A stretch of DNA of 64,000 bases from Bacillota bacterium (GTDB lineage Bacteria > Bacillota > Sulfobacillia > JAJZIM01), in assembly GCA_021810565.1 (NCBI GenBank), contig JAJZIM010000002.1, positions 18,429 through 82,428 of the forward strand, read 5' to 3'. A model generated the notes under the pieces. That model had not been told where the DNA came from. It was given only the letters and a program-made list of their open reading frames with translations, and ran no database searches. Position 1 is the first letter of the stretch. Each line of letters opens with the position of its first letter. Below, in pieces: positions 4,116 through 27,949 of the stretch. Made by a program: the position numbers and the translations under genes.

Positions 4116-5225
4116 TTGCTGCATTATCTTGTGCTGCAGCTTCGCTATATCGTGCTCCCGGACGTGACGGCCACCACGCAGACCATCCTGCTGGAGGCCG
4201 CCTTCTGGCTGGTGTTGACCTTCCTGCTGGGCGGCCTGATCCGCGGCCTGATCCCCCTGAACTGGCTGCGCCGGCGGCTGGGCGGCCGGGGTGCGCGGCC
4301 AGTGGCCTGGGCCACCTTCCTGGGGATGTTGCTGCCCATGTGCAGCTGCGGCGCCATCCCCTTGGGGATCAGCCTGTACTACTTCGGCGCCCGGCTGCCC
4401 ACCGCCCTAGCCTTCATGGGCGCGAACCCCATCATCAACCCGGCGGCAGTCCTGCTCTCCTACGCGCTCTTGGGCCCGCGCTGGACCGCGGCCTACCTGG
4501 CGGCGGGTTTCCTGGTGCCCGTGCTCATGGGCGTGGTCGCCAGCCGCTTCGGGGGGCTGGAGCTGGAGGCCGCCAAGCGCACCGGGGCGCCGCTTTTGAG
4601 CTGGGGGGACGCCGCCGGCCTGAGCCTGCCCCGCCGGGTATTCCACGGCCTGCGCTGGGGCTTCCTCGAGTTGGGTCCTTTAGTGAGCCTGTACGTGCTC
4701 CTGGGCGCCGTGCTCACCGGCGTGGTCACCGCCATCTACCCCCGGGGGATGTCCCTGGACGCGGCGTCGCTGCCCTCCCTGCTGCCCGTGGCCGCCGTGG
4801 CGGGCCTGATGTATGTGTGCGCCGTGGCCTTCATCCCCGCCGTGGCCTATGCCGTGGTGGCCCTGGGGCTGTCCCCCGGCGGCGCCATGGTCTTCCTGAT
4901 CGTGGGGGCCGCCACCAACCTGCCGGAGCTCTTGAGCATCTGGCGCCTCATCGGCCGACGGGCGGTGCTGATTTACGGCCTGGTCTTGATCGGCCTGGCG
5001 CTGGTAGCCGGATGGCTGGTCAACCGCTGGCTGGGGCCGTCCTTCTTTCCGGCGGTGGCGGCGCCGGCCGCCCATGCGGCCCGCCATGCCGCCGCCTTCC
5101 TCTACCCGACGGCGCCCCTGCCCCTGGACCAGGCGGCCATGGGGCTGGTCATCCTGCTGGGCCTATGGGGCCTGGCCGGACGGGTGGCCCGCCGGCTGCG
5201 CCCGAGCGCCCCTCAGCCCAGGTAG
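4116..5225 (+). CDS. DUF318/YraQ-family predicted permease
   Basis: 369 aa with multiple TM segments and the conserved CSCGAIP motif typical of COG0701 permeases. The exact start is uncertain. Confidence 0.65.
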   Translation: MLHYLVLQLRYIVLPDVTATTQTILLEAAFWLVLTFLLGGLIRGLIPLNWLRRRLGGRGARPVAWATFLGMLLPMCSCGAIPLGISLYYFGARLPTALAFMGANPIINPAAVLLSYALLGPRWTAAYLAAGFLVPVLMGVVASRFGGLELEAAKRTGAPLLSWGDAAGLSLPRRVFHGLRWGFLELGPLVSLYVLLGAVLTGVVTAIYPRGMSLDAASLPSLLPVAAVAGLMYVCAVAFIPAVAYAVVALGLSPGGAMVFLIVGAATNLPELLSIWRLIGRRAVLIYGLVLIGLALVAGWLVNRWLGPSFFPAVAAPAAHAARHAAAFLYPTAPLPLDQAAMGLVILLGLWGLAGRVARRLRPSAPQPR

Positions 5226-6220
5226 ACGGCCAGGTGGCGGGCCGCCGCCGCCTCCCAAGTGTGCCGCTCGCAGTAGGCCCGAGCCGCCTGGATGAGGGCC
5301 GCCTGCGCGGCCGGATCCCCCAACAGCTGGGCCACCCCGGCGGCGATGGTGTCGGCGTCCCCCGCCGGCAGCTTGCGCACCTCGGGTCCCAGGTCGGAGA
5401 AGAAGGAGGTGTCCGTGACCAGGACGGGCCGGGCGGCGGCCAAAGCCACGCGCACCGCGGCGGAGGTGCCCACGGCCCGGTGCTCGCGGTAGGGCAGGAC
5501 CACCAGGTCCAAGGCGGACAAGCGCCGCACCGCCTCCTCCTCCGGCAGGTAGCCCTCCCACATCGTCACCCCTCCCAGCCGGCGCTCCCGGAGGTGATCC
5601 AGGAAATGGGCCAGGCTACGCCGCGAGGTGTCGTTAGGCGCCGCGCTGGTCAGGAAAAAGGCGCCGAGCTCCGGGCGGCTCTCCTGCAGCTTCGCCACCG
5701 CGTCCAGGAGCGGGATCATCGCCTTGTGCGGGTAGGCGAAGCCGAAGAACCCCACGGCGGGGCCGTCTCCCACCCCGAGCTCCCGGCGCAGCCCCTCCCG
5801 GGGCACTACGGCGGGGCGCGGCGTCGGCATAGCGATCAACTCGATGCGCCCGGGGTCCGCCCCCGCCGCGATCAGCCCTCGGCGCACCAACTCGGAATGC
5901 ACGATGATCCGGGAGCAGGCGCAGATCAGGGCGTTGTGGTCGGCAAGCTCGGGCGCGAAGGAGTGCGCCGTCACCACCGCGCCCCGGCCGCGCCGGTGCA
6001 GCCGGCGCAACAGCTCCCGCAGCGCGGTCGGGTCGTGCAGGCTGTACTCGTATTGCAGATGGACCCGTCTGCCCCGTGCGCGCTGCTCCAAGCCGTCCAC
6101 GCTGCCGACCACCTCCACCGGGTGGCCCAGCCCCTCCAGGGCCGCCGTCAGGGACCGGGCATACTCCGCCACCCCGCAGGGCCTGCCCCAACTGGGCACC
6201 ACCATCACCGTCCCGTTCAT
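5213..6220 (-). CDS. glycosyltransferase, GT-B fold (GT4-like)
   Basis: ORF 5213..6322 trimmed to M35 (MNGTVMVVPSWGRPCGVAEYARSL...). It is the last gene of the 22-gene co-directional glycosylation locus. Confidence 0.7.
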   Translation of the reverse strand: MNGTVMVVPSWGRPCGVAEYARSLTAALEGLGHPVEVVGSVDGLEQRARGRRVHLQYEYSLHDPTALRELLRRLHRRGRGAVVTAHSFAPELADHNALICACSRIIVHSELVRRGLIAAGADPGRIELIAMPTPRPAVVPREGLRRELGVGDGPAVGFFGFAYPHKAMIPLLDAVAKLQESRPELGAFFLTSAAPNDTSRRSLAHFLDHLRERRLGGVTMWEGYLPEEEAVRRLSALDLVVLPYREHRAVGTSAAVRVALAAARPVLVTDTSFFSDLGPEVRKLPAGDADTIAAGVAQLLGDPAAQAALIQAARAYCERHTWEAAAARHLAVYLG

Positions 6221-6314
6221 GGGACAAACCTGCGGCCCCGCCCGGGGCGCCACGCGCTCATAGGTGATGGTGCCCCAATGCAGCCCCTTCTCGGCCCTGA
6301 CCACGCGCACCTCG

Positions 6315-7433
6315 TCAGGCATCGCCCGCCACCACCTTCAGCCGCCCGACCATCCGAGGGGCCACCTTCCGCCAGTCCAGGCGGGCCATGTCGGCCGCCG
6401 CTCGGCGTCCCGTCTCCCTGACCTGAGCCGGGTGGGTGAAGACCCAGCGCATGGCCGCCTTGAGCGCCTCCGGATCCGGGCGCGCCCAGCGGCTGCCCGC
6501 GTAGATCTGATCGTTGGGGTGATCGCAGGGCGGTACCCGCTCCAGACCGGCGACGGCCACCGGATAACCGTTGGCCGCGTCGACGAAATCCCCCGGCGCC
6601 GACCAGGCCGGCAGGATGCAGGGACGGGCGCAGGCCATGGCCTCCGCCGCCGGCAGGTTCCATCCCTCGCCGCGGCTGGCGCTGACGTAGCAGTCCACAG
6701 CGGTGTAGACGGACCCGATCCGCGCCACGCTCACCATTCCCGGCAACAGGACCACCCGCGGTGGCCGGGGAAAGGGCTCGAGCAGCCGCTCCATCTCCCG
6801 CCGGATCTTTTCGCCCCGGGGATCGAAATCAGGCCCGTTGGAGTAGGCCTTGATGAACAGGCAGACGTCCTCCTCCCGCCGGAACTCCCCGGCATAGGCC
6901 GCCAGCAGCAGGTCATACCCCTTGCGGGGCACCCACTCGAAGCTGGACAGAAAGTTGAAGGAGGCCCGCCCCGGCAGCGGCACCGGCGCCAAGCCGGGGT
7001 GGAAACGGCGGGTGTCCACCCCCACCGGCATGAGCTGCAGCCGCTCGGGAGCCACCCCGCTGGCCCGGAAGGTACCCAGGTTGAAGCTGGACGGCACCCA
7101 TACCTCGTCCAGGTCGTTGCAGCGCTCCACCCACAAGGGCGGGATGCGGTCCACCTCCAGCATGGTGTAGCCGATGCACGGCCTGCCCGGCACCCGCTCG
7201 AAGAAGTTGGCCACACTCACGTAGATCACCGGACCCCGCGGGTCCTCCGGGCGCCCTCCCATGCACTCCAACCGGCGCCGCAGCGGTGGATCCAGCTCCA
7301 CCCCGGCATAGCCCCAGGGCAGCGCCCGCAGCGCCACCTCCACCCCCTGCTCCTCCAGATGCACCGCCACCTGGCGCGTCAGTTCCGCGTATCCCGATGC
7401 GTCATATACCGGTCCCTTGACCGTCACCCGCAT
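6315..7433 (-). CDS. glycosyltransferase, GT-B fold (GT4 / 'group 1')
   Basis: ORF 6315..7625 trimmed to M65 (cat at 7431-7433): MRVTVKGPVYDASGYAELTRQ...RGEGWNLPAAEAMACARPCI. EX7E-like C-terminal GT4 motif. Confidence 0.75.
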   Translation of the reverse strand: MRVTVKGPVYDASGYAELTRQVAVHLEEQGVEVALRALPWGYAGVELDPPLRRRLECMGGRPEDPRGPVIYVSVANFFERVPGRPCIGYTMLEVDRIPPLWVERCNDLDEVWVPSSFNLGTFRASGVAPERLQLMPVGVDTRRFHPGLAPVPLPGRASFNFLSSFEWVPRKGYDLLLAAYAGEFRREEDVCLFIKAYSNGPDFDPRGEKIRREMERLLEPFPRPPRVVLLPGMVSVARIGSVYTAVDCYVSASRGEGWNLPAAEAMACARPCILPAWSAPGDFVDAANGYPVAVAGLERVPPCDHPNDQIYAGSRWARPDPEALKAAMRWVFTHPAQVRETGRRAAADMARLDWRKVAPRMVGRLKVVAGDA

Positions 7434-7446: not shown

Positions 7447-8136
7447 CTAGACCCGGGGGCCCGGCCCCCAGCGGCGGAAGTAGCGGTCCATGTTGAGCCC
7501 GGGCGCCTCCCCCTGCCCGATCCGGCCGCGGGTGCCCATCCCCTGGTGCCAAACCGCTCCGGCGCGACTGACCTCGACCGCGAAGCCCGCCTCCAGCACC
7601 CGATTGTTGTAGTCCCAGTCCTCATAGCCGCCGCAAGCCAGGTAGCCCTCGTCGAAACCCCCCACCCGCCGCACCACCCTGACCGGCATCACCCAGGGAC
7701 AGCCGTTGCCCGGCTCCCGCTCATCCCGATGCTCCCGCATGAAGGCCGAGGCCCGCTCGTCGTTCCACTCTTCCCGCCGCCCCGGCAGGTTCCAGGCCGC
7801 CACCTTCCCTATCTGCGGCTGCCTTTCCAGGACCCCCGCCAATCCCTCCAGCCAGCCCGGGAAAAAGACCATGTCGTTGTGGACCCAGGCCACGTAGGGC
7901 AGCTTCTCCGCCAGCAGCGTGCGCAGTCCCTGGTTCAAGGCCTGGGCCAGGGAGATGCCCTCCGGATTGGCCAACACCTCGATTCCCCGGCGGCCCAGCA
8001 GCTCCACCGTCGCGTCCGCCGAGCCCCCGTCCACCACCAAGAGCCGCGGCTGCCCACCGGCGCGCTCCAGGCTGTCCAAGGCCTCCCGCGTCATCTCCCA
8101 GAAGCCGCAGGTGGTCAGGATGATCCCGATCCGCAT
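7447..8136 (-). CDS. small GT2-family glycosyltransferase, paralog family A (copy 1 of 4)
   Basis: Trimmed to M51: MRIGIILTTCGFWEMTREALDSL...LLVVDGGSADAT...WVHNDMVFFPGWLEGL...YEDWDYNNRVLEAG. The same signature recurs at 21759, 23482 and 27108. Confidence 0.75.
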   Translation of the reverse strand: MRIGIILTTCGFWEMTREALDSLERAGGQPRLLVVDGGSADATVELLGRRGIEVLANPEGISLAQALNQGLRTLLAEKLPYVAWVHNDMVFFPGWLEGLAGVLERQPQIGKVAAWNLPGRREEWNDERASAFMREHRDEREPGNGCPWVMPVRVVRRVGGFDEGYLACGGYEDWDYNNRVLEAGFAVEVSRAGAVWHQGMGTRGRIGQGEAPGLNMDRYFRRWGPGPRV

Positions 8137-8834
8137 GAGGCGTCCTCCTTGCGCCGCACAAACTCCCGGATCGCCTCGGGATGCTCCCGGGTGAAGGGCC
8201 GCACCGGCCGGTCGTCCAGGATGGTGTCCGGGTTCACCCCGGCATAGCGATCCGGATCGCCCTCCAGCCGGGCATACTTCTCCCACCGCCGGAAGATGGC
8301 CCGGGGCGGCTTCACGTAGCCGTAGTGCACGAAAAAGATGCCCGCGTCCCGCACCCGCGGTCCCACCCCCACCGGATGTTCATGCACCGCCCCTTCCCAG
8401 TGCAAGGCGGCCGTGCGTCGGATCAGGACCAGGCGCCGGTACTGCTCATCGTGGTCGGCGGCGTTCTGCACGTGGCCGAAGTCCCGCATCAGATGGAAGA
8501 AATAGCTGTAGTAGGCGTCGGCGTCGGAGGCGACCAGCTGCGGGATCCGCCGGGCGGCGTCGGCATAGAACACCATGTCGGCGTCCATGGGCATGACCCA
8601 CCGACCCACGCTGGCCGCCAGGGCCAGGTTCCGCAGCGCCGCGTAGTTCTCGACCCGGGAGCGCAAGAGGCGCACCTTGGGAAAGGCCCGGGCGACGGCA
8701 TCGGTGCCGTCCGAGGAGTAGCCGTCCACCACCACCACCTCGTCCGCCGCCTCGTGCACCGACCGGAGGGAGTACGGCAGGTACTCCGCCTCGTCTTTCA
8801 CGATGTACAAGACACTCAAAGCCCGCTCGCGCAC
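8115..8834 (-). CDS. GT2-family glycosyltransferase
   Basis: 239 aa: MRERALSVLYIVKDEAEYLPYSLRSVHEAADEVVVVDGYSSDGTDAV. GT-A N-terminal DxD-region architecture. Confidence 0.7.
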   Translation of the reverse strand: MRERALSVLYIVKDEAEYLPYSLRSVHEAADEVVVVDGYSSDGTDAVARAFPKVRLLRSRVENYAALRNLALAASVGRWVMPMDADMVFYADAARRIPQLVASDADAYYSYFFHLMRDFGHVQNAADHDEQYRRLVLIRRTAALHWEGAVHEHPVGVGPRVRDAGIFFVHYGYVKPPRAIFRRWEKYARLEGDPDRYAGVNPDTILDDRPVRPFTREHPEAIREFVRRKEDASCGSGSS

Positions 8835-9865
8835 CTTGGACCTCCTCGTCTCGACAGATCTGCCGGTCCCACCCGCCGTCCCGCAGGGATCCGTACGTCG
8901 GGCGGCACCCGCGTGTTCGGCTCCACCGTGCTTCCCGCCCCCAGGGTCACCCGAGCACCCAGCATCGCCCGGGCGCCCACCCGGGCACCCTCACCCACCA
9001 CGCAGCCGTCGGCCAGCACGCAGCGCTCCAGCACCGCTCCCGCCTCCACCTGCACCCCGTCCCACAGCACGCATCCCTCCAGCCGGGCGCCGCGCTCCAC
9101 GCGGCAGCCCCGACCCAGCACCACCGGCGGCTGCAGTTGCGCCGTCGCCTCCACCCGGCTGTCCGCGCCCAGCAGGAGTCCGGGGCCAGGGGTCAGCATG
9201 TCCCCCTGGACCGCCAGATAATCCCGGACCTCCCCCACGTCCCGCCAGGCGCCCCGCAAGAGACACCCGCGGACGGACCCGGCCTCGCAAAGCCGCGGCA
9301 GGACTTCCCGCCCGAAATCCCGCCGCTGCCCCGGCGGCAGCCAGGACAGGGCCGCCGGCTCCAAAACGTAGATCCCCGCGCTGGCCAGGAAACCGGGGGC
9401 CACCCTGCCCGGCTTCTCCACGAACCGCTCCACCGTGGCGCCGCGGCAGCGGGCATACCCCAGCCGACCCGGATCCCGCCGGCGCAGCAGGGCCAGCGTG
9501 ACCAAGCCGCCCGCCTCCCGGTGGTGCCGCACCAGCCGCCGCAGGTCGAGCCGCAACCAAAGGTCCCCCATCAGCACCAACAGCGGCCGGCGGCTCCCCT
9601 CGACCACGGCCCGCACCGCCCCAGCGGTGCCCAGCTCCCGAGCCTCCCGCCGCACCGTCAGGCGCATCCCCGGGGGGAAGGCCTCCCTGAAGCCGTCCCG
9701 GGCCCCGGCAAGCAGCTCCACCCGGGGGAAGCCCTGCGCGCGCAACTGCTCCAGCAGGTGGGCCAAAAGCGGTCGATCCCCCACCGGCAGCATGGGTTTG
9801 GGCCGGGAGAGGGTCAGCGGCCACAGGCGCCGGCCCCGCCCCCCCGCCAAGATCAGCACGCGCAA
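8816..9865 (-). CDS. NDP-sugar pyrophosphorylase (nucleotidyltransferase domain plus C-terminal left-handed beta-helix; mannose-1-P guanylyltransferase / G1P-thymidylyltransferase-like)
   Basis: TTG start: MRVLILAGGRGRRLWPLTLSRPKPMLPVGDRPLL (the GXGXR NTP-transferase motif). The C-terminus is rich in hexapeptide-like repeats (VGEGARVGARAMLGARVTLGAGSTV). Confidence 0.8.
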   Translation of the reverse strand: MRVLILAGGRGRRLWPLTLSRPKPMLPVGDRPLLAHLLEQLRAQGFPRVELLAGARDGFREAFPPGMRLTVRREARELGTAGAVRAVVEGSRRPLLVLMGDLWLRLDLRRLVRHHREAGGLVTLALLRRRDPGRLGYARCRGATVERFVEKPGRVAPGFLASAGIYVLEPAALSWLPPGQRRDFGREVLPRLCEAGSVRGCLLRGAWRDVGEVRDYLAVQGDMLTPGPGLLLGADSRVEATAQLQPPVVLGRGCRVERGARLEGCVLWDGVQVEAGAVLERCVLADGCVVGEGARVGARAMLGARVTLGAGSTVEPNTRVPPDVRIPAGRRVGPADLSRRGGPRCASGL

Positions 9866-9993: not shown

Positions 9994-11013
9994 TCAGTCC
10001 AAAGCGGCCCGGTACACGGCGCAGGTCTCCCGAGCCGTGCGCTCCCAGCTGAAGTCCCGGGCGCGGGCGCGGCCCCGCTCGGCCAACTCGCTGCGCCACC
10101 GGGGATCCTCCAGCGCCCGGACCATGGCCGCCGCCAACTGGACCGGGTCCGCCGGATCCACCGCCGCGACGGCATCCCCCCCCACCTCCCGCAGCACCTG
10201 GATCCGCGAGGCGATGACCGGCGTGCCCAAGCTCATGGCCTCCAGCACCGGCAGGCCGAACCCCTCCCCCCGGCTGGGATACAGCAGGGCGACGGCCTGG
10301 TCCATCAGGGCCGCCAGGGTCGCGGAAGTCAGATAGCCCGTGAGCACCAGCCGGGGATCACCGGCGAGGCCCGCCGCCTGAACTTGCTGCACCACCCGCC
10401 GCCGCGCGTCCCGCGGGCAGCACATCAATAGCCGGCAGGGCAGGGAGGGCGGCAACCGGCGCCACGCCTCCAGCACCCCGGAGAGGTTCTTGCGGGGAAA
10501 GGCGCCCGCCAGGTGCAGGAAGAAGGAGCCGTAAAGAGCGTACCTTGCGCGGACCTGATCCCGCTGGGCCGGATCGGGAGGCCGCAAGGTCGGCGCCAAG
10601 GGCACCACCGCTATGCGTTCGGCCGCCACCCCCGCTCGCTGCCGCAGCTCGTGAGCCGTGACCTGGGAAGGTGCCAGCACCCGTCGCGCCTGAGCCACGG
10701 CCCGACGCAGCGACTCTTTCAGCAGCCGCCGCACCCGAGGTGGATACTCCTCCGGAAGCTCCTCAAAGAGCAGGTCGTGGACGCTCACCACCAGGGGATG
10801 CGCCAGCCCCACCCGGGGCGAGAAGAAAAGCGGATGGTGCACCAGATCCACCCTCGTCGGCGGCCCGGCCAATTCGGAGCCCTTCCAAAGCACCACCCCG
10901 ACCCCCGTCGCCCGGTCCAAGGCTTCGGCCAAGCGCCGGGGGTATAACTGCAGGCCGGTGGCCTCCCCGCCCAGGGCCGCCAGGTCCAGCGCCACCCGCA
11001 GCGGCCTAGTCAT
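9994..11013 (-). CDS. glycosyltransferase GT4
   Basis: 339 aa: ...SRGEGFGLPVLEAMSLGTPVIASR... (GT4 EX7E region). Its start overlaps the stop of the upstream 654-aa ORF by 8 nt. Confidence 0.8.
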   Translation of the reverse strand: MTRPLRVALDLAALGGEATGLQLYPRRLAEALDRATGVGVVLWKGSELAGPPTRVDLVHHPLFFSPRVGLAHPLVVSVHDLLFEELPEEYPPRVRRLLKESLRRAVAQARRVLAPSQVTAHELRQRAGVAAERIAVVPLAPTLRPPDPAQRDQVRARYALYGSFFLHLAGAFPRKNLSGVLEAWRRLPPSLPCRLLMCCPRDARRRVVQQVQAAGLAGDPRLVLTGYLTSATLAALMDQAVALLYPSRGEGFGLPVLEAMSLGTPVIASRIQVLREVGGDAVAAVDPADPVQLAAAMVRALEDPRWRSELAERGRARARDFSWERTARETCAVYRAALD

Positions 11014-13962: not shown

Positions 13963-14029
13963 CTCCCAACGAAAAACAGGTATCTGCGGGTGGATACCTG
14001 TTTCCCCTCCCCAGCGCAGGCGCTACGGC

Positions 14030-16861: not shown

Positions 16862-16943
16862 GGTTATGTAAAAAGCGTCCCGATTGCCCCCGACAAAAAA
16901 AGGGCCGCCCCGGGGGGGGGGCGACCCTTTGGATCCGGTCTGG

Positions 16944-18642: not shown

Positions 18643-19014
18643 TCAGTCCGTTGTCGATCCGTCCCGCGGCGCGATGTCCGGCCGGTGCGGATCGTATTCC
18701 CTGGACAGGAGCACCGCCAGGACGCTGGCCTGCAGCGCCCACACCCGGTGCTCCTCCCCCGGGCGAACGATGAAATACCAGCCGGCCGCGATCTCCTCCC
18801 GGGCCAGCCGGCCGGTACGCCCGTCCCGCACCTCCAGGCGCACCCGACCGGACACCACGTAGAAAAGTTCCTCGGTGCGGGCATGGAGATGCCCGCCGCG
18901 GCAGGCGCCCGCCCTCAGGCGCAGGACGTTCAGCTGCCGCCAGCGGCCCTGGGCCACCTGCACCAGTTCCCCGCGCTCGTCCGCCCGCCGCTGCTGCGGC
19001 CGCCGCCTTCTCAT
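18643..19014 (-). CDS. small cupin-domain protein (possibly sugar ketoisomerase/epimerase-like given context)
   Basis: ORF trimmed to M28 (ATGA overlap with upstream epimerase stop). Cupin motif 1 is GGHLHARTEELFYVVSG (G-x-H-x-H-x3-E-x6-G). Confidence 0.6.
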   Translation of the reverse strand: MRRRRPQQRRADERGELVQVAQGRWRQLNVLRLRAGACRGGHLHARTEELFYVVSGRVRLEVRDGRTGRLAREEIAAGWYFIVRPGEEHRVWALQASVLAVLLSREYDPHRPDIAPRDGSTTD

Positions 19015-21758: not shown

Positions 21759-22457
21759 TCAGTACAGATTGGTTACCCGTGGCGCGTCCGACCCCCACCG
21801 CGCCACGTAGCGGCGGCGGTTGGCCGCCTCGCCGTCCAGACGCACCGCATAGCGGGTGGCGGCGGCACGGTGCCACACCACGCTGCCCTTGGTCACCAGC
21901 ACGGCGTAGCCGGCCGCCAGGAGGCGGTTGTTGTAGTCCCAATCCTCGTACTCGGCGTGGTTGACATAGCCCTCGTCGTGGGGACCCACCGCCTCGGCCG
22001 CCGCCCGGGGGATCACCCACGGGTTGCCGTTGCCGGCTTCCAGAAAAGCGCCCTGGGTCCGGACGAATTCCGCCACCTCCGCCTCGGTGTATTCCCGGTC
22101 CAACAGGTTCCAGGAGGACACCTTGCCCGCCCCGGGCCGGCGCTCCAGGACCGCCAGCAATCCCGACAGCCAACCCGGGTAGAAGACCATGTCGTTGTGG
22201 ATCCAACAAAGGCAATCCACGACCGGATCGGTCAGCAGATGGGAGCGCGCCCGGTTCTGAACCCAGGGCAGCGATCGGGGAGCACGGCCCGTCAGCACCT
22301 CCACCCCCTCTCGGCGCAAAAACTCCGGCGTCCCGTCCCGGGATCCGTTGTCCACCGCGATCAGGCGGTGCGGCGCGTCCACGGTACGTCGAAAGCTCTC
22401 CAGGCAGCGCCGGGTGAGCGGCAGGAAGTCGAAACAGGTGAGGAAGACGCCCACCAT
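21759..22457 (-). CDS. small GT2-family glycosyltransferase, paralog family A (copy 2)
   Basis: MVGVFLTCFDFLPLTRRCLESF...LIAVDNGSRDGT...WIHNDMVFYPGWLSGL...YEDWDYNNRLLAAG. Confidence 0.75.
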   Translation of the reverse strand: MVGVFLTCFDFLPLTRRCLESFRRTVDAPHRLIAVDNGSRDGTPEFLRREGVEVLTGRAPRSLPWVQNRARSHLLTDPVVDCLCWIHNDMVFYPGWLSGLLAVLERRPGAGKVSSWNLLDREYTEAEVAEFVRTQGAFLEAGNGNPWVIPRAAAEAVGPHDEGYVNHAEYEDWDYNNRLLAAGYAVLVTKGSVVWHRAAATRYAVRLDGEAANRRRYVARWGSDAPRVTNLY

Positions 22458-22460
22458 GGC

Positions 22461-23468
22461 TCACGCCACCAGCTCCAGATAGCGGCGGGCCACCTGGTCC
22501 CAGCAGTTGGCATCGATGAAGGCCTGCTGGCGGCGCTCCCGCTCGGGGTCCACCAAGCCGTGCTGCAGCCAGACGGCCAGCTCCCCGGGATCACGCAGCT
22601 TGACGAACACATCTGCCGGCAGGTCTTGGAACCAGGGTACCCCGTTGTTCACCAGCACCAGGCGGTGCGCGGCCACGGCCAGTTGCGCCGCGCTCGAGAC
22701 CACCTGGGCGTCCACCGGCGGATACCACAACACGGTGGCGTGGGCCGCCGCCAGCCGACCCACCAATTCGCGCTGGTCGAACCAATCGCGCAGCAGGATC
22801 AGGTCGGCGGCGTTGGGCAGGGTGCAGGAATACAGGGGATCGAAGGCCAGGGTGGTCCAGCCGATGCTCCGGGCCGCGCCGTAGATCAGCCGGTAATCCA
22901 CCTTTCCCATTCCCAGGGTGGCCACCAGGTCGGCGGGCCAGCCCTCCCGGTGCTGCACCTCCCGCCGGGGCACCTCGGGCAGCCGCTGCACCCCCTGGGG
23001 GATCACCGTAGCCCCCGGCAACCGACGGAGAAGGCTGGCGCCATGCACCACCCGAACGTCCGCCAACTCGGGCAGCCCCGAGGGGATGTACGAGTCGTGG
23101 AAGGTCACCACCCGCCGCAGCCCCCGGGCGGCGCAGCGAGCCAACAGCTCGGTCAGAAAAGCCCCCGGATAGATGGAGGCCTGGTACTCCACCAACAGGG
23201 CCCGGATCTCCCAGCCCATGATCTGGCGCCAGACCAGCTCAAGGTCGTAGCCCGCCCCCCGGGACCACGGCTGCACCTCGAAGCAGGCCACCGCTTCCGG
23301 TTCGGAGCGGGTCAGCCGTCCCCGGTGCTCGGGGCGGATGCGCCCGTCGGTCCAATTGCCGAAGATGGTCACCGCGTGTCCCTGCTCCCGCAGTTTGCCG
23401 GCCAACTCCACCGCGTTCTCGGCCACCGCGCACTTGATGCCGTGGGAGGACAGGATGCCGATGCGCAA
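22461..23468 (-). CDS. glycosyltransferase, GT-B-like (GT1/GT4 superfamily, divergent)
   Basis: 335 aa: MRIGILSSHGIKCAVAENAVELAGKLREQGHAVTIFG... Two Rossmann-like halves; weaker similarity, hence lower confidence. Confidence 0.55.
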   Translation of the reverse strand: MRIGILSSHGIKCAVAENAVELAGKLREQGHAVTIFGNWTDGRIRPEHRGRLTRSEPEAVACFEVQPWSRGAGYDLELVWRQIMGWEIRALLVEYQASIYPGAFLTELLARCAARGLRRVVTFHDSYIPSGLPELADVRVVHGASLLRRLPGATVIPQGVQRLPEVPRREVQHREGWPADLVATLGMGKVDYRLIYGAARSIGWTTLAFDPLYSCTLPNAADLILLRDWFDQRELVGRLAAAHATVLWYPPVDAQVVSSAAQLAVAAHRLVLVNNGVPWFQDLPADVFVKLRDPGELAVWLQHGLVDPERERRQQAFIDANCWDQVARRYLELVA

Positions 23469-23481: not shown

Positions 23482-24192
23482 TCAAAAGGGTGCGGGCAGG
23501 CGCAGGTGCAGGCTGCCCCATTTCCCGATGTAGCGCGCCTTGTTGCTCTCGTCCCAATCCGGCCGGTGGGTGTGACGTCGGGTGCCGGCCTGCTCGTGCC
23601 GCACCGCGCTGGCCTTGGTGATCATCACCGGGTATCCGGCCAGGAGCAGGCGGTTGTTGTAGTCGTGGTCCTCGTAGATGCAGTCGCCCACGTAGCCCTC
23701 GTCGTGCAGGCCCACCTCCTCCACCACCGCTCGGGGCATGATCCAGGGCACCGCGTTTCCCAGCTTGAGGTAGCCGCCGGACAGGCGCATGAAGCGTCCC
23801 ACCTCCTCCTCGGTGAAGTCTCTGGACTCGGTCAACTCCCACGGGGAAAGCTTGCCGATCCACGGCGCGCGCTGAAACACCTGCCCCAGGTTCGCGAGCC
23901 ACCCCGGGAAGAAGCGCATGTCGTTGTGGATCCAGGCCAGGTGGGTCACCCCCGGATCCGCCAGGAGCCGGCATAACCCCAGGTTGATGGCCGCCGCCTG
24001 GCTGCACGGCGCCGCCACGGCGATCACCTCGTAGCCCCGGGAAAGCAGGTATTCCCGGGTGCCGTCCTCGGACGCGTTGTCCACCACCACCAGGCGGTGG
24101 GGCGTGTGGTCGGACCCGTAGTGGAAGCTGTCCAGGGCCGATCGGGTCTTCTCCAGGAAATTGTAGGTGGTGAGCACCACTCCCGCCAACAT
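23482..24192 (-). CDS. small GT2-family glycosyltransferase, paralog family A (copy 3)
   Basis: MLAGVVLTTYNFLEKTRSALDSF...LVVVDNASEDGT...WIHNDMRFFPGWLANL...YEDHDYNNRLLLAG. Confidence 0.75.
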   Translation of the reverse strand: MLAGVVLTTYNFLEKTRSALDSFHYGSDHTPHRLVVVDNASEDGTREYLLSRGYEVIAVAAPCSQAAAINLGLCRLLADPGVTHLAWIHNDMRFFPGWLANLGQVFQRAPWIGKLSPWELTESRDFTEEEVGRFMRLSGGYLKLGNAVPWIMPRAVVEEVGLHDEGYVGDCIYEDHDYNNRLLLAGYPVMITKASAVRHEQAGTRRHTHRPDWDESNKARYIGKWGSLHLRLPAPF

Positions 24193-24196
24193 CGCA

Positions 24197-25246
24197 TCAT
24201 CTCCCCTCGGACAACGCGGCCAGTTTCGCCGTCCAGTCCCCCGCCACCGCCTCCCAGGAAAAACCGCTCAGGGCCCGGCAATGGGCCGCCTCCCCCATGG
24301 CCTGCAGCCGCTGGGGATCGCGCAGCAGGGCCAACACCGCCTCGGCGAAAGCGCGATGGCCTTCGGGATCGGCGTGGGGGGAACGCTCCAGGAGGATCCC
24401 CGTGACCCCGTCCGCCACCGTGGTGGCCAGGGCTCCGATCCGCGGCGCCACCGTGGGCGCCCCCGCCGCCTGGCACTCCAGGGAGGCCAGGCAGAACAGC
24501 TCCTGCACCAGACACGGGTACAGGTGCACCACGCTCTCACCCTGCAGCCGCACCAGCTCGCGCCGCGGCAACTTTCCCAGATAGCGCACCCCCGGCACCC
24601 CGGCCAAGGTGGCCCGATAAGGGGCGTCCCCCGGATCCGAGCGGCCCCACAGTCGAAAGTCGCCGGTGACCACCAGGGAGGCGGCCGGATATGCTTCCCG
24701 GATCATCCCGAAGATGGGCGCCAGATGCTCCGCCCCGCGGTCGGGCACCGAGCAGTAGATCAGCCGGCCCGGCACCTTGCGCGCCGGCGCGGCATACTCC
24801 GCCGGGGACACCCCCAAGAAGCCGGTGTGCAGCTTCCCGGGGGGAATGGCGAAACGTCGGGACAAAAGCTCGGCATGAAAGGGGCTCAAGGCGAAGACGC
24901 AATCCAGGTGGGGCAGGTAGTCGCGGTAGCTTTTCACCCGCACCTGGTCATCCTCCAAGGACCAGTGCACCTTGACCCGGGCGGGAAGCTCCCGGATGCC
25001 GGGGGTGTAGGACAGGCTGACGAAGGCGTCCCAAGGGCCGCCGCGCTCCAGCAGTCCGACCGGCAGGTAGGTGACGCCGGCGTGCCGGCCCGGGCGGCGC
25101 GTGCCGTTGTACACCGTGACCCGGTGGTGGCGGGCCAGCTCCCGGGCCAGGAAGACCAGGGCGGCCTCCGTGCCGCCCAGGCCCCTTCCCTCCAGATCCT
25201 CTCCCCGCCAGTCCCAGGTGTCCGCCAGGTAAAAGGCGATTTTCAT
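24197..25246 (-). CDS. glycosyltransferase GT4 (type G, copy 2)
   Basis: ORF 24197..26140 trimmed to the internal ATG (cat at 25244-25246), 349 aa: MKIAFYLADTWDWRGEDLEGRGLGGTEAALVFLARELA...ELFCLASLECQAAGAPTVAPRIGALATTVADGVTGILL. The upstream 298 codons of the track ORF are an antisense/alternate-frame artefact over the epimerase gene. Confidence 0.8.
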   Translation of the reverse strand: MKIAFYLADTWDWRGEDLEGRGLGGTEAALVFLARELARHHRVTVYNGTRRPGRHAGVTYLPVGLLERGGPWDAFVSLSYTPGIRELPARVKVHWSLEDDQVRVKSYRDYLPHLDCVFALSPFHAELLSRRFAIPPGKLHTGFLGVSPAEYAAPARKVPGRLIYCSVPDRGAEHLAPIFGMIREAYPAASLVVTGDFRLWGRSDPGDAPYRATLAGVPGVRYLGKLPRRELVRLQGESVVHLYPCLVQELFCLASLECQAAGAPTVAPRIGALATTVADGVTGILLERSPHADPEGHRAFAEAVLALLRDPQRLQAMGEAAHCRALSGFSWEAVAGDWTAKLAALSEGR

Positions 25247-26214
25247 GCCGTCCGCCTGCCGCCCAGCCGTTCCCGCCAATATTCCAGGAGGTCGGCCAGC
25301 GTGCGCTCGAAGGGAAGCTCGGGACCCCAGCCGGTGCGCTCCCGGAACCGGCCCGCGTCCCCCAGCAGCACCGGCACGTCGGAGGGACGCAGCCTGGTCG
25401 GATCCCGGCGCACCTCGATGGGCACCCGCGCCAGGTCCAGGAGGATATCCACCACCTCGCCGATGGAGTGGGCCTGGCCGCTGGCTAGGTTGTAGACCGC
25501 CCCGGGCTCCCCCAGCTCCAGGGCCAGCCGGTAGGCGCGGACCATGTCCCGCACGTCGGTGAAATCGCGGCGGGCGGAAAGGTTCCCCACCCACAGCACC
25601 GGCTCCTTGAGGCCCAGTTCGATCTGAGCCACTTGGCGAGCGAAATCGGAGGTGGCGAACACCTTGCCCCGCCGCGGGCCGGTGTGGTTGAAGGCCCGGG
25701 TGCGCACCACCGCCAGACCGTAGCTGGCGAAATACTGGTATCCTAGGTAGTCTTGGGCCACCTTGCTCACGGCGTAGGGGGAAAGGGGACGCAGGGGATT
25801 CTCCTCCCCGATGGGCAGTTCCTCCTCCCGCACCAGTCCGTACTCCTCCGAGGAGCAGGCCACCAGGATCCGCGGGGCGGGATCGAGCCGGCGGGACGCC
25901 TCCAACAGGTTCAACTCCCCCAGCACATTGGTGGCGAAGGTCTCCTCCGGTTCCCGCCAGGAGGTGGGCACGAAGCTCTGGGCCGCCAAGTGGAAGATCC
26001 CCTCGGGAGCCACCTCCGCCACGGCCCGCCAAGTCGCCCAGGAATCGCGCAGGTCCGCCTCCACCAAGTGCACCCGTCCCGCCAAGTGGCGGATGTTGTC
26101 CAGGGGGCTGCGCCAGCGCACCAGGCCCCATACCTCCCAACCGGACTGCTCCAGGAGATGCTCGGCCAAGTGACTGCCCGCGAAGCCGGTGATACCCGTG
26201 ATCAGCACCCGCAA
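25243..26214 (-). CDS. NAD-dependent epimerase/dehydratase family protein (Rmd-like), copy E2
   Basis: MRVLITGITGFAGSHLAEHLLEQSGWEVWG...YAVSKV. Paralog of 19011..19973. ATGA overlap with the downstream GT4. Confidence 0.8.
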   Translation of the reverse strand: MRVLITGITGFAGSHLAEHLLEQSGWEVWGLVRWRSPLDNIRHLAGRVHLVEADLRDSWATWRAVAEVAPEGIFHLAAQSFVPTSWREPEETFATNVLGELNLLEASRRLDPAPRILVACSSEEYGLVREEELPIGEENPLRPLSPYAVSKVAQDYLGYQYFASYGLAVVRTRAFNHTGPRRGKVFATSDFARQVAQIELGLKEPVLWVGNLSARRDFTDVRDMVRAYRLALELGEPGAVYNLASGQAHSIGEVVDILLDLARVPIEVRRDPTRLRPSDVPVLLGDAGRFRERTGWGPELPFERTLADLLEYWRERLGGRRTA

Positions 26215-26289: not shown

Positions 26290-27114
26290 TCAAAGGTCCG
26301 TGATCACCGCGTTGGACCACAGCGCCGCCGATTCGGCCTGGCCCACCGAACCCCATTTGCGCAGGAAGGCCTTGCGGGCGGCGGCATCGGAACCGGACGG
26401 CAGGTGGCGGTCCGTGGCCCCGCCGAAATGGTGGACGTACACCCCGCCGTAGACGTAGACCCGGGAGCAGCGAGGATGGCGCTGGGTGCGCAGGAAGTAG
26501 TCAATGTCCTCGTACCAGGCCGGGCCGAAGCTCTCGTCGAAGGGACCCAGCTCCTCCACCAACTCGCGGCGCAGCAGCATGCACGCGGCGTTGTGCATCG
26601 CCAGGCGCACTCCGGCGTGCCGCTCGCCGAAGGCTGCGGCGAAGGCGTCGAAGCTGCCGCCGTAGGCCCCGTCCAGGTCGTCCCAGGTGCGACCCGACCC
26701 GATGCGCTCCCGCTCCGGGAACAGATCCGGCCGCAGGCTCAGACGCCAGTTGTCGCAGGCGCACACGATGCCAGCTGTGGGGTGGCCTTCCATCTCCCGC
26801 AGCAGTCCCTCCAGCCATCTCGGCGACAACACCACGTCGTTGTTGCAGATGCACACGTGCCGAGCGCCGGCGGCGGCCAGCCCCTGGTTCCACGCCCGGG
26901 CCACTCCCAGGTTGCCCCGGTTGCGGATGACCCGGGCACCGGCGGCGGCGAACAGCGCCGCGGTGTCGTCGTCGGAGCCGTTGTCCACCCCGATCAACTC
27001 GGTTGCGCCTGGGGTGTGGCGCCGGAAGGAGCCCAGGAACCCCCGGGTGAATTCCCGTTGGTTGTGGGCGGCCACCACCACCGCGCAGGACGCCTCCCCG
27101 CCCGCCCTCACCAC
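26290..27114 (-). CDS. GT2-family glycosyltransferase (type B, copy 2)
   Basis: Track ORF 26290..27399 has an ATG start that would overlap the upstream gene by ~140 nt. I propose a GTG start at ~27111-27114, overlapping the upstream TGA: VVRAGGEASCAVVVAAHNQREFTRGFLGSF...LIGVDNGSDDDT...CNNDVVLSPRWLEGLL. Confidence 0.65.
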   Translation of the reverse strand: MVRAGGEASCAVVVAAHNQREFTRGFLGSFRRHTPGATELIGVDNGSDDDTAALFAAAGARVIRNRGNLGVARAWNQGLAAAGARHVCICNNDVVLSPRWLEGLLREMEGHPTAGIVCACDNWRLSLRPDLFPERERIGSGRTWDDLDGAYGGSFDAFAAAFGERHAGVRLAMHNAACMLLRRELVEELGPFDESFGPAWYEDIDYFLRTQRHPRCSRVYVYGGVYVHHFGGATDRHLPSGSDAAARKAFLRKWGSVGQAESAALWSNAVITDL

Positions 27115-27836
27115 AGGCGGCGCTCCAGGGCCGCCCCCGGGTGGCACCAGCCCCAGTGCAGGTGACCCCACTTGCGGCTGTAATAGGCGCGGTTTTGCTC
27201 CTCCGCCCCGACCGGCTGCAGGGCGCCACGGGTGGTGGCGTTGCATCCGTGCCACACCAGGCTGCGGCGGGTAACCATGACCGGGATCCCCCGCTCCAGC
27301 AGGCGGTTGTTGTAGTCCCAATCCTCGTAGGCCCCCCCGTGGACGAACCCCTCGTCGTGGGGACCGACCTCGGCGACGGCCCACTTGGGCATCAGCCACG
27401 GGATGGCGTTCCCCAGGCGCAGCCAGTTTCGCTCCCGCTCGATGCGCGCCAGGACCTCGCCGTCGTCGGGCACCTCCCCCGTGAGATGCGTGGCCCCCAG
27501 CTTGCCGATCTCGGGGTGTTCCCGCAGCACGGCCACCAGATTGTCCAGCCAGCGGGGCAAAAGGATCATGTCGTTTTCAATCCAGCCGATGTACTCCACC
27601 TCCGGATCGTCCATGAAGGCGGCGGTACCCAGGTTCATGGCCCGGGGCAGGCTCACGCGCTCCGGGCTGATCCACACCTCGTGGCCCATCTCCCGCAGCC
27701 GCTGCGGCGTTCCGTCGTCGGAACAATTGTCCAGGATCAAGAGGCGGCACCGGCCCTCGGTGCAGCGCCGAAAGCTCTCCAGACAGCGTTGGGTCTGTTC
27801 CCAAAGGTTGAAGGTGGTCAGGAATATCCCCACCAA
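27108..27836 (-). CDS. small GT2-family glycosyltransferase, paralog family A (copy 4)
   Basis: Track ORF 27108..27908. By analogy to the other three copies (MVGVF/MRIGII/MLAGVV), the probable start is TTG at ~27836 (or GTG at 27833) with GGAGGG 8 nt upstream: (M)VGIFLTTFNLWEQTQRCLESF...LLILDNCSDDGT...WIENDMILLPRWLDNL...YEDWDYNNRLLERG. Confidence 0.7.
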   Translation of the reverse strand: MVGIFLTTFNLWEQTQRCLESFRRCTEGRCRLLILDNCSDDGTPQRLREMGHEVWISPERVSLPRAMNLGTAAFMDDPEVEYIGWIENDMILLPRWLDNLVAVLREHPEIGKLGATHLTGEVPDDGEVLARIERERNWLRLGNAIPWLMPKWAVAEVGPHDEGFVHGGAYEDWDYNNRLLERGIPVMVTRRSLVWHGCNATTRGALQPVGAEEQNRAYYSRKWGHLHWGWCHPGAALERRLW

Positions 27837-27949
27837 GGTTGAAACCCTCCTTCCCCTCCAGGATATGTTCCGGCCGCAGCAGCGTGACCCCCGGCGACCG
27901 GACAGCAAAAAAAGGCCGCCCCCGAGGGCGACCGGCAGGTCTAGGCCCG

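Follow-up and report, generated by a model that had tools for sequence, protein, structure and literature searches.

A candidate mother-cell spore-surface glycosylation locus with interleaved SPOCS and glycosyltransferase genes

A block of 22 consecutive co-directional genes (5213–27908, minus strand), located in the 64-kb stretch of DNA that was analysed here (the window), is well supported as a candidate system by which the mother cell would glycosylate the spore surface, and we regard this reading of the sequence as probable. About 14 soluble glycosyltransferases (GTs) are interleaved with three SPOCS proteins and associated with predicted promoters of the late-sporulation type, and thus the locus most likely provides a sugar coat for the spore surface. 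The original prediction had proposed assembly in the mother-cell cytoplasm instead of a Wzy-dependent or ABC-exported polymer. This is supported by sigmaK-like boxes, the three SPOCS proteins, a conserved gene adjacency and the lack of export genes in the window. Both the timing of expression and the glycan are what we infer from these features.

Organisation and gene content of the locus

The 22-gene block was borne out by GC3 and frame analysis and by gene calls made independently on four public contigs of near-identical sequence. It is flanked by rodA on one side and by a convergent ArsP permease on the other (Table 1). All genes from rodA to the permease at 4116 had been expected on the minus strand, which is correct for the 22 genes but not for the ArsP permease. 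Of the 21 junctions, as computed from the coordinates, 15 show either an overlap of 4–22 nt or a gap of 3–16 nt, in line with the tight packing from which translational coupling had been deduced. However, an intrinsic terminator is located behind each of three genes (rodA, the APC permease gene g12 and the second SPOCS gene g14), so that the locus comprises several transcription units (at least six) and not one translationally coupled operon. Non-coding DNA accounts for about 5.7 kb of the window. The reading frame of the first GT gene, g01, extends to 27908, but the TTG there falls inside the T-tract of the rodA terminator, and therefore g01 begins further downstream. The adjacency to mre, min and rodA had been put forward as a functional clue and was rejected, as it carries no weight. 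Likewise, the APC permease had been counted in favour of a spore function; it is an unrelated insertion outside the system with its own sigma70-like promoter (18619–18592) and lends no support.

Table 1. Coordinates of genes, terminators and promoter-like boxes in the window.
Feature	Position	Strand	Description
rodA terminator	27914..27933	-	intrinsic; GGTCGCCC-TCGG-GGGCGGCC, then T7; parts rodA from the locus
P1	27859..27885	-	sigmaK-like box tcACG-N16-CATATCCTG; 5' of g01
g01	27108..27839	-	small GT2 of a four-paralog family (g01, g05, g07, g20); true start uncertain
g02	26290..27114	-	GT2
P2	26248..26275	-	sigmaK-like box gtgACC-N17-GCATAGCATG
g03	25243..26214	-	Rmd/GMD-family SDR; top PDB match RMD 2PK3; S-S-E and YxxxK catalytic motifs kept
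g04	24197..25246	-	GT4; 53% identity to g08
g05	23482..24192	-	small GT2, four-paralog family
g06	22461..23468	-	conserved 335-aa protein; marginal GT-B N-terminal match only; tentative GT
g07	21759..22457	-	small GT2, four-paralog family
g08	20696..21742	-	GT4; 53% identity to g04
g09	19961..20692	-	GT2
g10	19011..19973	-	Rmd-like SDR; top PDB match 2PK3
g11	18643..19014	-	small sugar-nucleotide-type cupin; start overlaps g10 stop by 4 nt
g12	16944..18521	-	APC amino-acid permease; passenger gene
g12 terminator	16899..16930	-	intrinsic, strong; 3' of g12
g13	15806..16861	-	two SPOCS/DUF3794 domains; PF12673, E = 2.5e-20
P3	15687..15713	-	sigmaK-like box taACA-N16-GCATATCGTG; 5' of g14
g14	14030..15637	-	three tandem SPOCS domains, acidic N-terminal tail; PF12673, E = 1.2e-23
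g14 terminator	13971..14006	-	intrinsic; 14-bp stem, then T5; -29 kcal/mol; z = -3.1
g15	12979..13962	-	GT4
g16	11006..12967	-	653-aa Arg-rich orphan; highly diverged multi-SPOCS protein
g17	9994..11013	-	GT4; ortholog 3' of multi-SPOCS gene in contig L051
P4	9898..9925	-	sigmaK-like box gcACC-N17-CATAACCTG; 5' of g18
g18	8816..9865	-	sugar-1-P nucleotidylyltransferase (NTP-transferase); top NCBIfam match mannose-1-P guanylyltransferase
g19	8115..8834	-	GT2
g20	7447..8136	-	small GT2, four-paralog family
g21	6315..7433	-	GT4
g22	5213..6322	-	GT4-like; last gene of the locus; 3' end overlaps ArsP permease by 13 nt
ArsP permease	4116..5225	+	convergent with the locus
Satellite operon	51886..53943	-	outside the locus; sigmaK-like box 53943–53917; convergent with spoVB
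Satellite GT2	53077..53874	-
Satellite SAM methyltransferase	52497..~53060	-
Satellite GNAT	51886..52407	-

Searches with Pfam matched about 14 of the 22 genes to GT families, as many as had been predicted, namely seven GT2 proteins (PF00535; g01, g02, g05, g07, g09, g19 and g20) and seven GT-B/GT4-like proteins (g04, g06, g08, g15, g17, g21 and g22), with an eighth GT2 at 53077 outside the locus. The g06 match is marginal, just below the gathering score (28.0 versus 28.5 bits), and no relative of g06 was found in the PDB, while g22 lies scarcely above the threshold (28.9 versus 28.5). None of the GTs contains a 19-residue hydrophobic window of the transmembrane-helix type (the highest, marginal value was 1.63 in g05), which agrees with the expected lack of membrane anchors. 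The AF2 model of g07 adopts a GT-A fold (pLDDT 94.9), and the small GT2 proteins have generic GT-A enzymes as their structural neighbours. For no GT of the locus was orthology to a characterised spore GT detectable, and SpsA is absent from the PDB matches.

All known occurrences of the SPOCS/DUF3794 family are in spore envelopes, and its members include SpoVID, CotE, SipL, CsxA and CsxC. Two coat-type members had been reported in the locus and both were recovered (g13 and g14); the count, however, rises to three with g16. This gene had been listed as "unknown", an assignment that was rejected because, among 1.8 billion representatives, its only remote homolog is P0059 (E = 3.3e-8; 2e-14 in the pairwise comparison), a protein with four SPOCS domains that scores 142 bits on PF12673, and because a SPOCS-unit HMM detects three to four repeats in g16 itself. 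Translation of g13 probably begins at the TTG at 16837, which yields the 343 aa of the NCBI call, and g14 has few cysteines and a weak match to the CsxC family. No signal peptides were found on g13, g14 or g16.

The sugar-nucleotide enzymes are those expected, that is, one NDP-sugar pyrophosphorylase (g18), two Rmd-like reductases (g03 and g10, with 50% identity to each other) and a small cupin (g11), which matches PF07883, PF14667 and FdtA. The SDR g03 is a candidate GDP-hexose 4,6-dehydratase or 4-reductase, and g11 a candidate epimerase or isomerase. A GMD dehydratase had been noted as absent, and both SDRs stay below the GMD equivalog cutoff (176 bits for the better one versus 415). Thus, either the sugar pathway drawn below is incomplete or an Rmd paralog serves as the dehydratase.

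The lack of a flippase, polymerase, priming enzyme and exporter was likewise confirmed, with no Bac_transf/WecA-type priming transferase, Wzx, Wzy, Wzz or ABC exporter detected by Pfam and NCBIfam among essentially all open reading frames of the 64 kb, the operons of the locus included. The sole MOP-family protein in the window is the SpoVB equivalog (394.9 bits versus a cutoff of 372.3), in accordance with the spoVB gene that had been named nearby. A priming or export system could lie elsewhere in the genome. The locus might then make a vegetative envelope glycan (an S-layer glycoprotein glycan, a secondary cell-wall polymer or EPS), with priming transferase, flippase or ABC exporter, and ligase encoded at other sites and the SPOCS genes inside by chance. 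Surface-glycan loci are commonly GT-rich with such a composition, and both SDRs are closest, among solved structures, to RMD 2PK3 of Aneurinibacillus thermoaerophilus, an enzyme that serves D-rhamnose synthesis for an S-layer glycan. We consider a vegetative role unlikely, however, as no membrane component is linked to the locus in the 64 kb or in any of seven related loci.

SigmaK-like boxes and a proposed pathway

The window contains six occurrences of the pattern AC-N16/17-CATANNNT[AG], where 0.80 +/- 0.87 would be expected and 200 simulations gave no more than 4. The final form of the pattern (T then A or G) was picked after the sites had been seen; a stricter form from the literature gave only four matches against 1.1 expected, three of them at glyco-gene promoters. 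All six boxes are on the gene strand and five lie directly 5' of glyco-gene starts (25–110 nt), four of these inside the locus. The pattern agrees with the published consensus sequences KCACM/GCATANNNTA (PMC3416734) and MWCM-16-CATANNNTD (PMC9562818), with the consensus taken from Bacillus and the host belonging to a distant lineage. A search for sigmaE/sigmaK promoters had been suggested upstream of 27908, 16861, 15637 and 13962, and boxes of this pattern were found for g01 (P1, between 27908 and the gene) and g14 but not for g13 and g15. No match to the sigmaK pattern precedes g13 or the g15–g17 unit, which lies directly behind a terminator. A ACATAACCAT box is present near the g13 start (16869–16860), as is a second box, ACATAATATC, near g18 (9981–9972). 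Sigma70-like promoters are absent from the gaps with sigmaK-like boxes, and one precedes the passenger permease. Operon heads with sigmaK-type instead of sigma70-type elements also argue against a vegetative glycan.

It seems highly improbable that another sporulation sigma factor (sigmaE or the forespore factors sigmaG/F) or a regulator acts at the CATA boxes; timing and compartment would then depart from the sigmaK model, as with early mother-cell expression. CATA-like -10 elements are indeed common to all sporulation sigma factors (consensus table in PMC3416734), the CATA boxes of g13 and spoVB lack the AC -35 element, and the B. subtilis sps operon is partly driven by sigmaE (PMC517825). 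The -35 element k-c-A-C-m at a distance of 16–17 nt, however, is specific to the sigmaK consensus and was found at five sites in the window and six in related loci.

In the proposed spore-surface pathway, the module would be expressed late in sporulation in the mother cell and would make a portion of the outer envelope of the spore, along with its decorating glycan. The host is a thermophilic Thermaerobacter with a genome assembled from a metagenome, and species of this genus form endospores. After engulfment, the units would be transcribed by mother-cell sigmaK RNA polymerase. GDP-hexose, probably GDP-mannose, would be supplied by g18. From it, the SDR pair g03 and g10 and the cupin g11 would produce a GDP-6-deoxyhexose, for instance that of D-rhamnose or of an epimer. 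Soluble glycosyltransferases of both types, GT2 and GT4, would then assemble oligo- or polysaccharide chains straight onto protein acceptors of the spore surface, for which the SPOCS proteins encoded in the locus, or layers organised by them, are the most plausible candidates. As assembly would occur in the mother-cell cytoplasm, membrane translocation would be unnecessary. The B. subtilis sps/cge genes are a locus of like kind; the 11-gene sps spore-polysaccharide operon is sigmaK-driven (PMC517825). Spore polysaccharides are covalently attached to coat and crust proteins (PMC11708026).

Related loci in other contigs

The suggested synteny comparison revealed that SPOCS–GT or SPOCS–Rmd adjacency recurs in three independent contigs (L049, L051 and L052), which further speaks against SPOCS genes lying by chance in a vegetative glycan locus. 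In L051, 8 nt separate a gene with four SPOCS domains from the g17-like GT4 gene behind it. In L052 (65% GC), orthologs of g19, g21, g06, g22, g18, g04, g09 and g20 come after a SPOCS gene of 731 aa. In L049 (66% GC), the g03 ortholog (66% identity) overlaps the g13 ortholog, and the g14 ortholog comes next. The small GT2 family and the g19–g22 module, on the other hand, also occur in loci without a SPOCS gene within 10 kb (L043, L044, L046–L048 and L050). Linkage of the GT module to SPOCS is therefore not strict, and its occurrence in several other genomes with no SPOCS genes beside it would suit a vegetative glycan.

Since L049 has its g03, g13 and g14 orthologs side by side, the g04–g12 block looks like an insertion or expansion. 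This arrangement would fit a mosaic without common function, in which a permease and a GT island, hypervariable and acquired horizontally, came to lie beside ordinary SPOCS coat genes and the GTs serve other cytoplasmic glycosylation (flagellin, general protein O-glycosylation or small molecules). The clear insertion of g12, the many recent paralogs (four small GT2 copies, g04/g08 and g03/g10) and the generic neighbours of the small GT2 proteins point the same way. We nevertheless regard a mosaic as quite improbable, as the inserted GT units have the same promoter type as g14, g03 at the head of the GT block is translationally coupled to SPOCS in L049, the same GT set lies behind a SPOCS gene in another organism (L052), and flagellin or natural-product genes are absent nearby.

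The promoter-like boxes of the spore-surface candidate recur as well and head orthologous operons in two other organisms. Four are present in L052 against 0.28 expected, all intergenic and on the sense strand, a number reached in none of 200 simulations. The Rmd-SPOCS-SPOCS block of L049 lies behind GTGACA-N17-GCATAGCATG, so that the -35 and -10 elements of P2 are kept 5' of the orthologous gene while the spacer is not conserved. The single sigmaK-like box in the L048 locus heads the GT operon.

Gene order, units and boundaries

The best-supported reading of the locus is a late mother-cell (sigmaK-type) module for SPOCS envelope proteins and a spore-surface glycan, in which all steps would take place in the cytoplasm. 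Because random open reading frames are plentiful at the G+C content of the window (about 70%), genes were defined in two ways, by codon-position G+C and by gene predictions made independently on four public contigs that are nearly identical to the window. Taken together, the two gave 22 consecutive minus-strand genes, here called g01 to g22 from the rodA side, which are flanked by rodA and a convergent ArsP permease. The upstream neighbours are mreBCD, minCDE and rodA, and udg, thiL and tsaE follow downstream. The original prediction had placed every gene from rodA to the permease at 4116 on the minus strand; the co-directional run was found as described, with the permease itself on the plus strand. 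The 3' ends of g22 (minus) and the permease (plus) share 13 nt (5213-5225), and no terminator was detected between the two genes.

From the coordinates, genes at most junctions overlap by 4-22 nt or stand 3-16 nt apart, as had been proposed in favour of translational coupling. The locus is nevertheless not a single coupled operon: three intrinsic terminators lie in the region, and gaps of 67-177 nt set apart at least six units. The TTG at 27908 proposed as the start of g01 lies within the T-tract of the rodA terminator, and the start must therefore be located further downstream. The only Rfam match in the window is a tRNA at 43993; riboswitches and other RNA elements were not detected in the locus.

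Coordinates of the locus boundaries, selected genes, terminators and promoter-like boxes in the window
Feature	Position	Strand	Remark
rodA	27950-29074		upstream boundary of the locus
Intrinsic terminator	27933-27914		after rodA
SigmaK-like box	27859	minus	upstream of g01
SigmaK-like box	26248	minus	upstream of g03
g03	25243-26214	minus	Rmd-like SDR
g10	19011-19973	minus	Rmd-like SDR
g11	18643-19014	minus	small cupin
g12	16944-18642	minus	APC amino-acid permease, positions including promoter; own promoter and terminator
Intrinsic terminator	16930-16899		after APC permease
g13	15806-16861	minus	SPOCS-type
SigmaK-like box	15687	minus	upstream of g14
g14	14030-15637	minus	SPOCS-type
Intrinsic terminator	14006-13971		after g14
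g16	11006-12967	minus	diverged SPOCS-type
SigmaK-like box	9898	minus	upstream of g18
g18	8816-9865	minus	guanylyltransferase-like
ArsP permease	4116-5225	plus	convergent with the locus
SpoVB equivalog	50348-51853	plus	convergent with the satellite operon
Satellite operon	51886-53943	minus	behind sigmaK-like box 53943-53917
Satellite GT2	53077-53874	minus	
Satellite SAM methyltransferase	52497 to about 53060	minus	
Satellite GNAT	51886-52407	minus	

The APC permease g12 had been taken as support for a role in the spore, a use that it does not bear, as it appears to be a passenger that was inserted into the locus. It is preceded by a sigma70-like promoter (TAGAAA-16-CATAAT, 18619-18592), the only such one in the locus gaps, and its terminator is strong. 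A scan of genome contigs found relatives, at most 55% identical, at 38 loci in unrelated genomes, none of which has glycosyltransferase (GT) or SPOCS neighbours; g12 was dropped as a synteny anchor for this reason.

Soluble enzymes and a predicted nucleotide-sugar route

Pfam assigned seven genes to GT2 (PF00535; g01, g02, g05, g07, g09, g19 and g20) and seven to GT4-like GT-B enzymes (PF00534/PF13692/PF13439; g04, g06, g08, g15, g17, g21 and g22), which bears out the predicted richness in GTs. Thirteen of these exceed the Pfam gathering score. The remaining one, g06 (22461-23468), is marginal: at 28.0 bits it stays just under the gathering score (28.5), and no relative in the PDB was found for it, but it is still kept as the partner of the small GT2 in other genomes. 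A transmembrane-type hydrophobic segment was found in no GT by a hydropathy scan, again as anticipated. The small GT2 family (about 230 aa) has four paralogs in the locus, which are 41-50% identical, and comprises about 35 sequence clusters. Its AF2 model (pLDDT 94.9) shows a GT-A fold, which Foldseek placed nearest, within the PDB, to polypeptide GalNAc-transferases (their catalytic domains), WrtF and AvpGT, with identities of 15-18%. These neighbours are compatible with protein O-glycosylation and are not diagnostic of it. SpsA, for which a structure is solved and which was covered by the comparison, was not among the PDB sequence matches of the locus GT2s, and an SpsA-like identity is not supported.

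The genes g04-g09 (19961-25246, minus) follow a strict GT4-GT2-GT4-GT2-GT4-GT2 alternation and are bracketed by the Rmd-like SDRs g03 and g10. The identities between g04 and g08 (53%) and between g05 and g07 (50%) point to a GT4+GT2 cassette that was duplicated in tandem.

The two SDRs are paralogs with 50% identity, and the best solved relative of both is RMD (2PK3), a GDP-6-deoxy-lyxo-4-hexulose reductase (E = 3.9e-84 for g03 and 4.4e-63 for g10). An assignment of g03 as GMD was considered for its strong PF16363 match and given up after NCBIfam and PDB searches, which pointed to an Rmd-like enzyme and not to an equivalog GMD. Both genes stay below the cutoff of the GMD equivalog TIGR01472 (415 bits; g03 176, g10 88), in agreement with the earlier assignment of two Rmd-like reductases without a GMD. 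Nevertheless, one of the paralogs might act as a dehydratase: g03 keeps Ser-Ser-Glu and YxxxK motifs, which also occur in dehydratases, and its second-best PDB match is a GDP-heptose 4,6-dehydratase. The cupin g11 passes both the FdtA model and PF14667 (CapF-C-terminal-like); its start and the g10 stop overlap. The closest match of g18 is a mannose-1-phosphate guanylyltransferase. In its RMD-related SDRs and the Man-1-P guanylyltransferase-like gene the locus resembles the GDP-D-rhamnose pathway (GMD and RMD, e.g. in Aneurinibacillus thermoaerophilus), from which it differs by the lack of an equivalog GMD, the two Rmd paralogs and the separate cupin. Because of the latter two features a different 6-deoxyhexose end product is possible, and the product may be a 6-deoxyhexose other than D-rhamnose.

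With Pfam and NCBIfam models run over essentially all open reading frames of the 64 kb, neither a phosphoglycosyltransferase nor Wzx, Wzy, Wzz or an ABC exporter was detected, which agrees with the original prediction that flippase, polymerase, priming enzyme and exporter are missing. The sole MOP-family protein in the window is the SpoVB equivalog, 22 kb from the locus. A phosphoglycosyltransferase together with an exporter in or beside the locus, as in Wzx/Wzy- or ABC-dependent capsule, O-antigen or EPS systems, was not found. A surface glycan of vegetative cells, with machinery that lies in another part of the genome, would also leave the locus without these genes and is considered less likely; export functions are likewise missing beside related gene sets in other genomes, and SPOCS genes and sigmaK-like boxes lie among the locus genes.

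SPOCS-type proteins and related loci

Both g13 (MDA8065607.1, annotated as "DUF3794 domain-containing protein") and g14 clearly pass the SPOCS model PF12673 (72.9 and 83.5 bits; gathering score 23.6). Two SPOCS units are present in g13; in g14 an acidic tail is followed by three tandem units of very regular build, and g14 also shows a weak CsxC-family match. The two proteins are cysteine-poor and have neither a LysM domain nor a signal peptide. A hydrophobic stretch in g13 (residues 259-286) was considered as a membrane anchor and rejected, as it is a V/L/I-rich beta region within the second SPOCS unit.

The Arg-rich g16 (MDA8065604.1, 653 aa), flanked by two GT4 genes, had no Pfam match even at E <= 10 and no NCBIfam match. 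Word-based homolog searches returned only g16 itself and, for g13, one 40% relative, and both proteins are very poorly sampled in this respect. A HMMER (phmmer) search of 1.8 billion representatives gave one relative of g16 (E = 3.3e-8), P0059, which carries four PF12673 domains (142 bits) and is encoded in the related locus L051. The pairwise alignment (E = 2e-14) spans the PF12673 domains of P0059, and a custom SPOCS-unit HMM detected three to four repeats in g16 (29 bits). An AF2 model of g16 made without an alignment was unusable (pLDDT 35). From the homology and the repeats, g16 is a highly diverged SPOCS-type protein missed by Pfam, so that the locus encodes three such proteins and not only the two originally proposed.

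A 2026 preprint describes SPOCS (SpoVID-CotE-SipL) as a family of scaffold proteins of the spore envelope and counts CsxA and CsxC among its members; SipL was reported there to have three tandem DUF3794 domains. The three tandem SPOCS units predicted for SipL correspond to those in g14. In contrast to g13 and g14, SipL and SpoVID carry LysM, and CsxA and CsxC of Clostridium sporogenes are not cysteine-poor. A report of SPOCS proteins genomically paired with GT arrays was not found in the literature consulted.

SPOCS-GT and SPOCS-Rmd neighbourhoods are conserved in other contigs. In L049 (66% GC), the ortholog of g03 (66% identity) runs into the start of a gene orthologous to g13 (40% identity), and the first 53 residues of the third gene are 70% identical to g14. 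Since g03, g13 and g14 are contiguous there, g04-g12 have been added between these genes in the window, either by insertion or by expansion, on the stretch from g03 to g13. L052 (65% GC), from the same sample as L049, contains a SPOCS gene of 731 aa followed by orthologs of g19, g21, g06, g22, g18, g04, g09 and g20, and in L051 (72% GC) the P0059 gene is followed 8 nt on by a g17-like GT4. A functionally unrelated mosaic, for which the passenger permease is an example of a gene with no such partners, is less likely beside these recurring neighbourhoods than a joint SPOCS and glycan module.

Seven further contexts (L043-L048 and L050) hold the small GT2 family in loci of soluble GTs and deoxysugar genes, which often share the Rmd-like SDR, cupin and ManC with the window. 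None of the seven contains a flippase, polymerase or exporter, nor a SPOCS gene within 10 kb. Orthologs of g19, g20, g21 and g22 recur as a soluble module on Firmicutes contigs of 35-65% GC (L044, L048, L050 and L052), most of which also carry the Rmd-like SDR, cupin and Man-1-P guanylyltransferase, and no membrane component lies beside the module in these four. Together with the small GT2, Rmd-like SDR and cupin, this module may mark spore or cytoplasmic glycosylation more widely. A 765-aa protein of L050 is a fusion of the orthologs of g21 and g22.

Promoter-like boxes and comparison with known spore-glycan systems

The hexamer ACATAA occurs seven times in the window against 2.5 expected, five of these in locus gaps. 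As a shared motif it was replaced by a two-block sigmaK pattern, which explains most of its sites. The sigmaK consensus has been published as KCACM / GCATANNNTA (PMC3416734) and as MWCM-16-CATANNNTD (PMC9562818); according to the latter source, exosporium genes are preceded by promoters of the sigmaK type. With both strands searched, AC-N16/17-CATANNNT[AG] was found six times in the window against 0.80 +/- 0.87 expected from 200 first-order Markov simulations (simulated maximum 4), the final letter class having been set after the sites were seen. All of them belong to the minus strand: one box each is found immediately upstream of g01, g03, g14 and g18, another at the head of the satellite operon beside spoVB and the last within a gene, in a window of which only about 9% is non-coding. 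A stricter literature sigmaK pattern gave 4 matches against 1.1 expected, 3 of them at promoters of the glycosylation units.

The boxes are also conserved. GTGACA-N17-GCATAGCATG in L049 corresponds to GTGACC-N17-GCATAGCATG in the window with an unconserved spacer, the footprint that would be expected of a promoter. L052 has four sigmaK-like boxes, all intergenic and on the sense strand (0.28 expected; none of 200 simulations reached four), and the sole sigmaK-like box of L048 heads a GT operon.

Of the starts at which a search for sigmaE or sigmaK promoters had been suggested, g01 (27908) and g14 (15637) have a sigmaK-like box, g13 (16861) has a CATA box only and the g15-g17 unit (13962) has none. 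On inspection, sigmaE and sigmaA models gave no convincing match to the g13 promoter. The plus-strand SpoVB equivalog has a -10-like box, GCATAGCTT, about 35 nt before its ATG (50300-50347) but lacks an AC -35 element. The spoVB gene of B. subtilis depends on sigmaE, and this box is possibly a sigmaE-type promoter that provides an internal contrast to the sigmaK-like ones. Control of the locus by another sporulation sigma factor would leave room for the units that lack a full sigmaK-like box; given the AC -35 element at the other units it is less likely than sigmaK-type control. Upstream of g18 (minus) two CATA-type boxes stand in tandem, ACATAATATC at 9972-9981 with AC at N16 and a second at 9925-9898, possibly dual promoters. 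The satellite operon may serve to modify this spore glycan or a different one.

Taken as a late mother-cell module, the glycosylation units would depend on sigmaK RNA polymerase, GDP-mannose would be converted to a GDP-6-deoxyhexose, and the glycan would be transferred to protein acceptors, possibly the SPOCS proteins themselves, and be located on the spore. Exact sequence matches assign the window to metagenome-assembled genomes that carry the label Thermaerobacter sp., and endospores are formed by Thermaerobacter species. Among known systems, the one nearest to the locus in its logic is sps/cge of B. subtilis, which is driven by sigmaK; spsA-L, cgeAB/CDE, yfnHGFED and ytcABC likewise comprise soluble GTs and nucleotide-sugar enzymes without flippase, polymerase or priming enzyme. 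There, a sigmaK promoter drives sps in the mother cell (PMC517825), and the spore polysaccharides are linked to proteins of the coat and crust (PMC11708026, PMC7439481, PMC13577073). Soluble enzymes without lipid-carrier priming or export were found here by Pfam/NCBIfam and hydropathy scans of the window, and five boxes, kept in L049, L048 and L052, point by their sequence to sigmaK/sigmaE promoters at operon heads. The locus differs in lineage (Thermaerobacter, about 70% GC), in a GDP-hexose/Rmd-like sugar route instead of dTDP-rhamnose or legionaminic acid, in about 14 GTs, far above sps/cge, and in SPOCS structural genes interleaved with the enzymes. Orthology to sps/cge enzymes was not detected in the comparison, which covered SpsA.

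In the exosporium of the Bacillus cereus group and Clostridioides difficile (BclA-type), soluble mother-cell GTs glycosylate spore-surface proteins with deoxyhexoses. This cytoplasmic protein glycosylation is similar to what the genes of the locus predict, with the difference that no BclA collagen-like gene was found here and the candidate acceptors are SPOCS proteins. Spore-surface glycans govern adhesion, hydrophilicity and dispersal and, to our knowledge, have been characterised only in a few Bacilli and C. difficile. The locus is a compact and testable spore-glycan candidate in a distant thermophilic lineage and a first genomic link between SPOCS spore-envelope scaffolds and dedicated glycosylation machinery. 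The sigmaK promoter consensus appears recognisable far beyond Bacillus, so that mother-cell regulons of uncultured Firmicutes might be predictable from sequence.

SPOCS genes are arranged as GT4-g16-GT4 in the window, 4xSPOCS-GT4 in L051, SPOCS followed by eight GTs in L052 and Rmd-SPOCS-SPOCS in L049. A more speculative and rather unlikely proposal is that SPOCS proteins are glycosylated outer-layer blocks, encoded with dedicated soluble GTs in co-evolving cassettes behind sigmaK-type promoters. If true, this would be a previously unrecognised glycoprotein architecture of the spore surface in deep-branching, high-GC Firmicutes, and the roles of SPOCS would widen from morphogenetic or crystalline scaffold to glycan carrier.

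Other features were observed elsewhere in the window. Between maf and clpB there is a 604-aa open reading frame (34858-36672, minus) that encodes a Cas12f1-like TNB domain of the TnpB/IS605 type. The tRNA gene (43993-44082, plus) is followed by a weak-coding stretch up to 45600 that holds a HepT-like toxin open reading frame (44389-45237, minus), and the region 43993-45600 could be a toxin-antitoxin or integration remnant.
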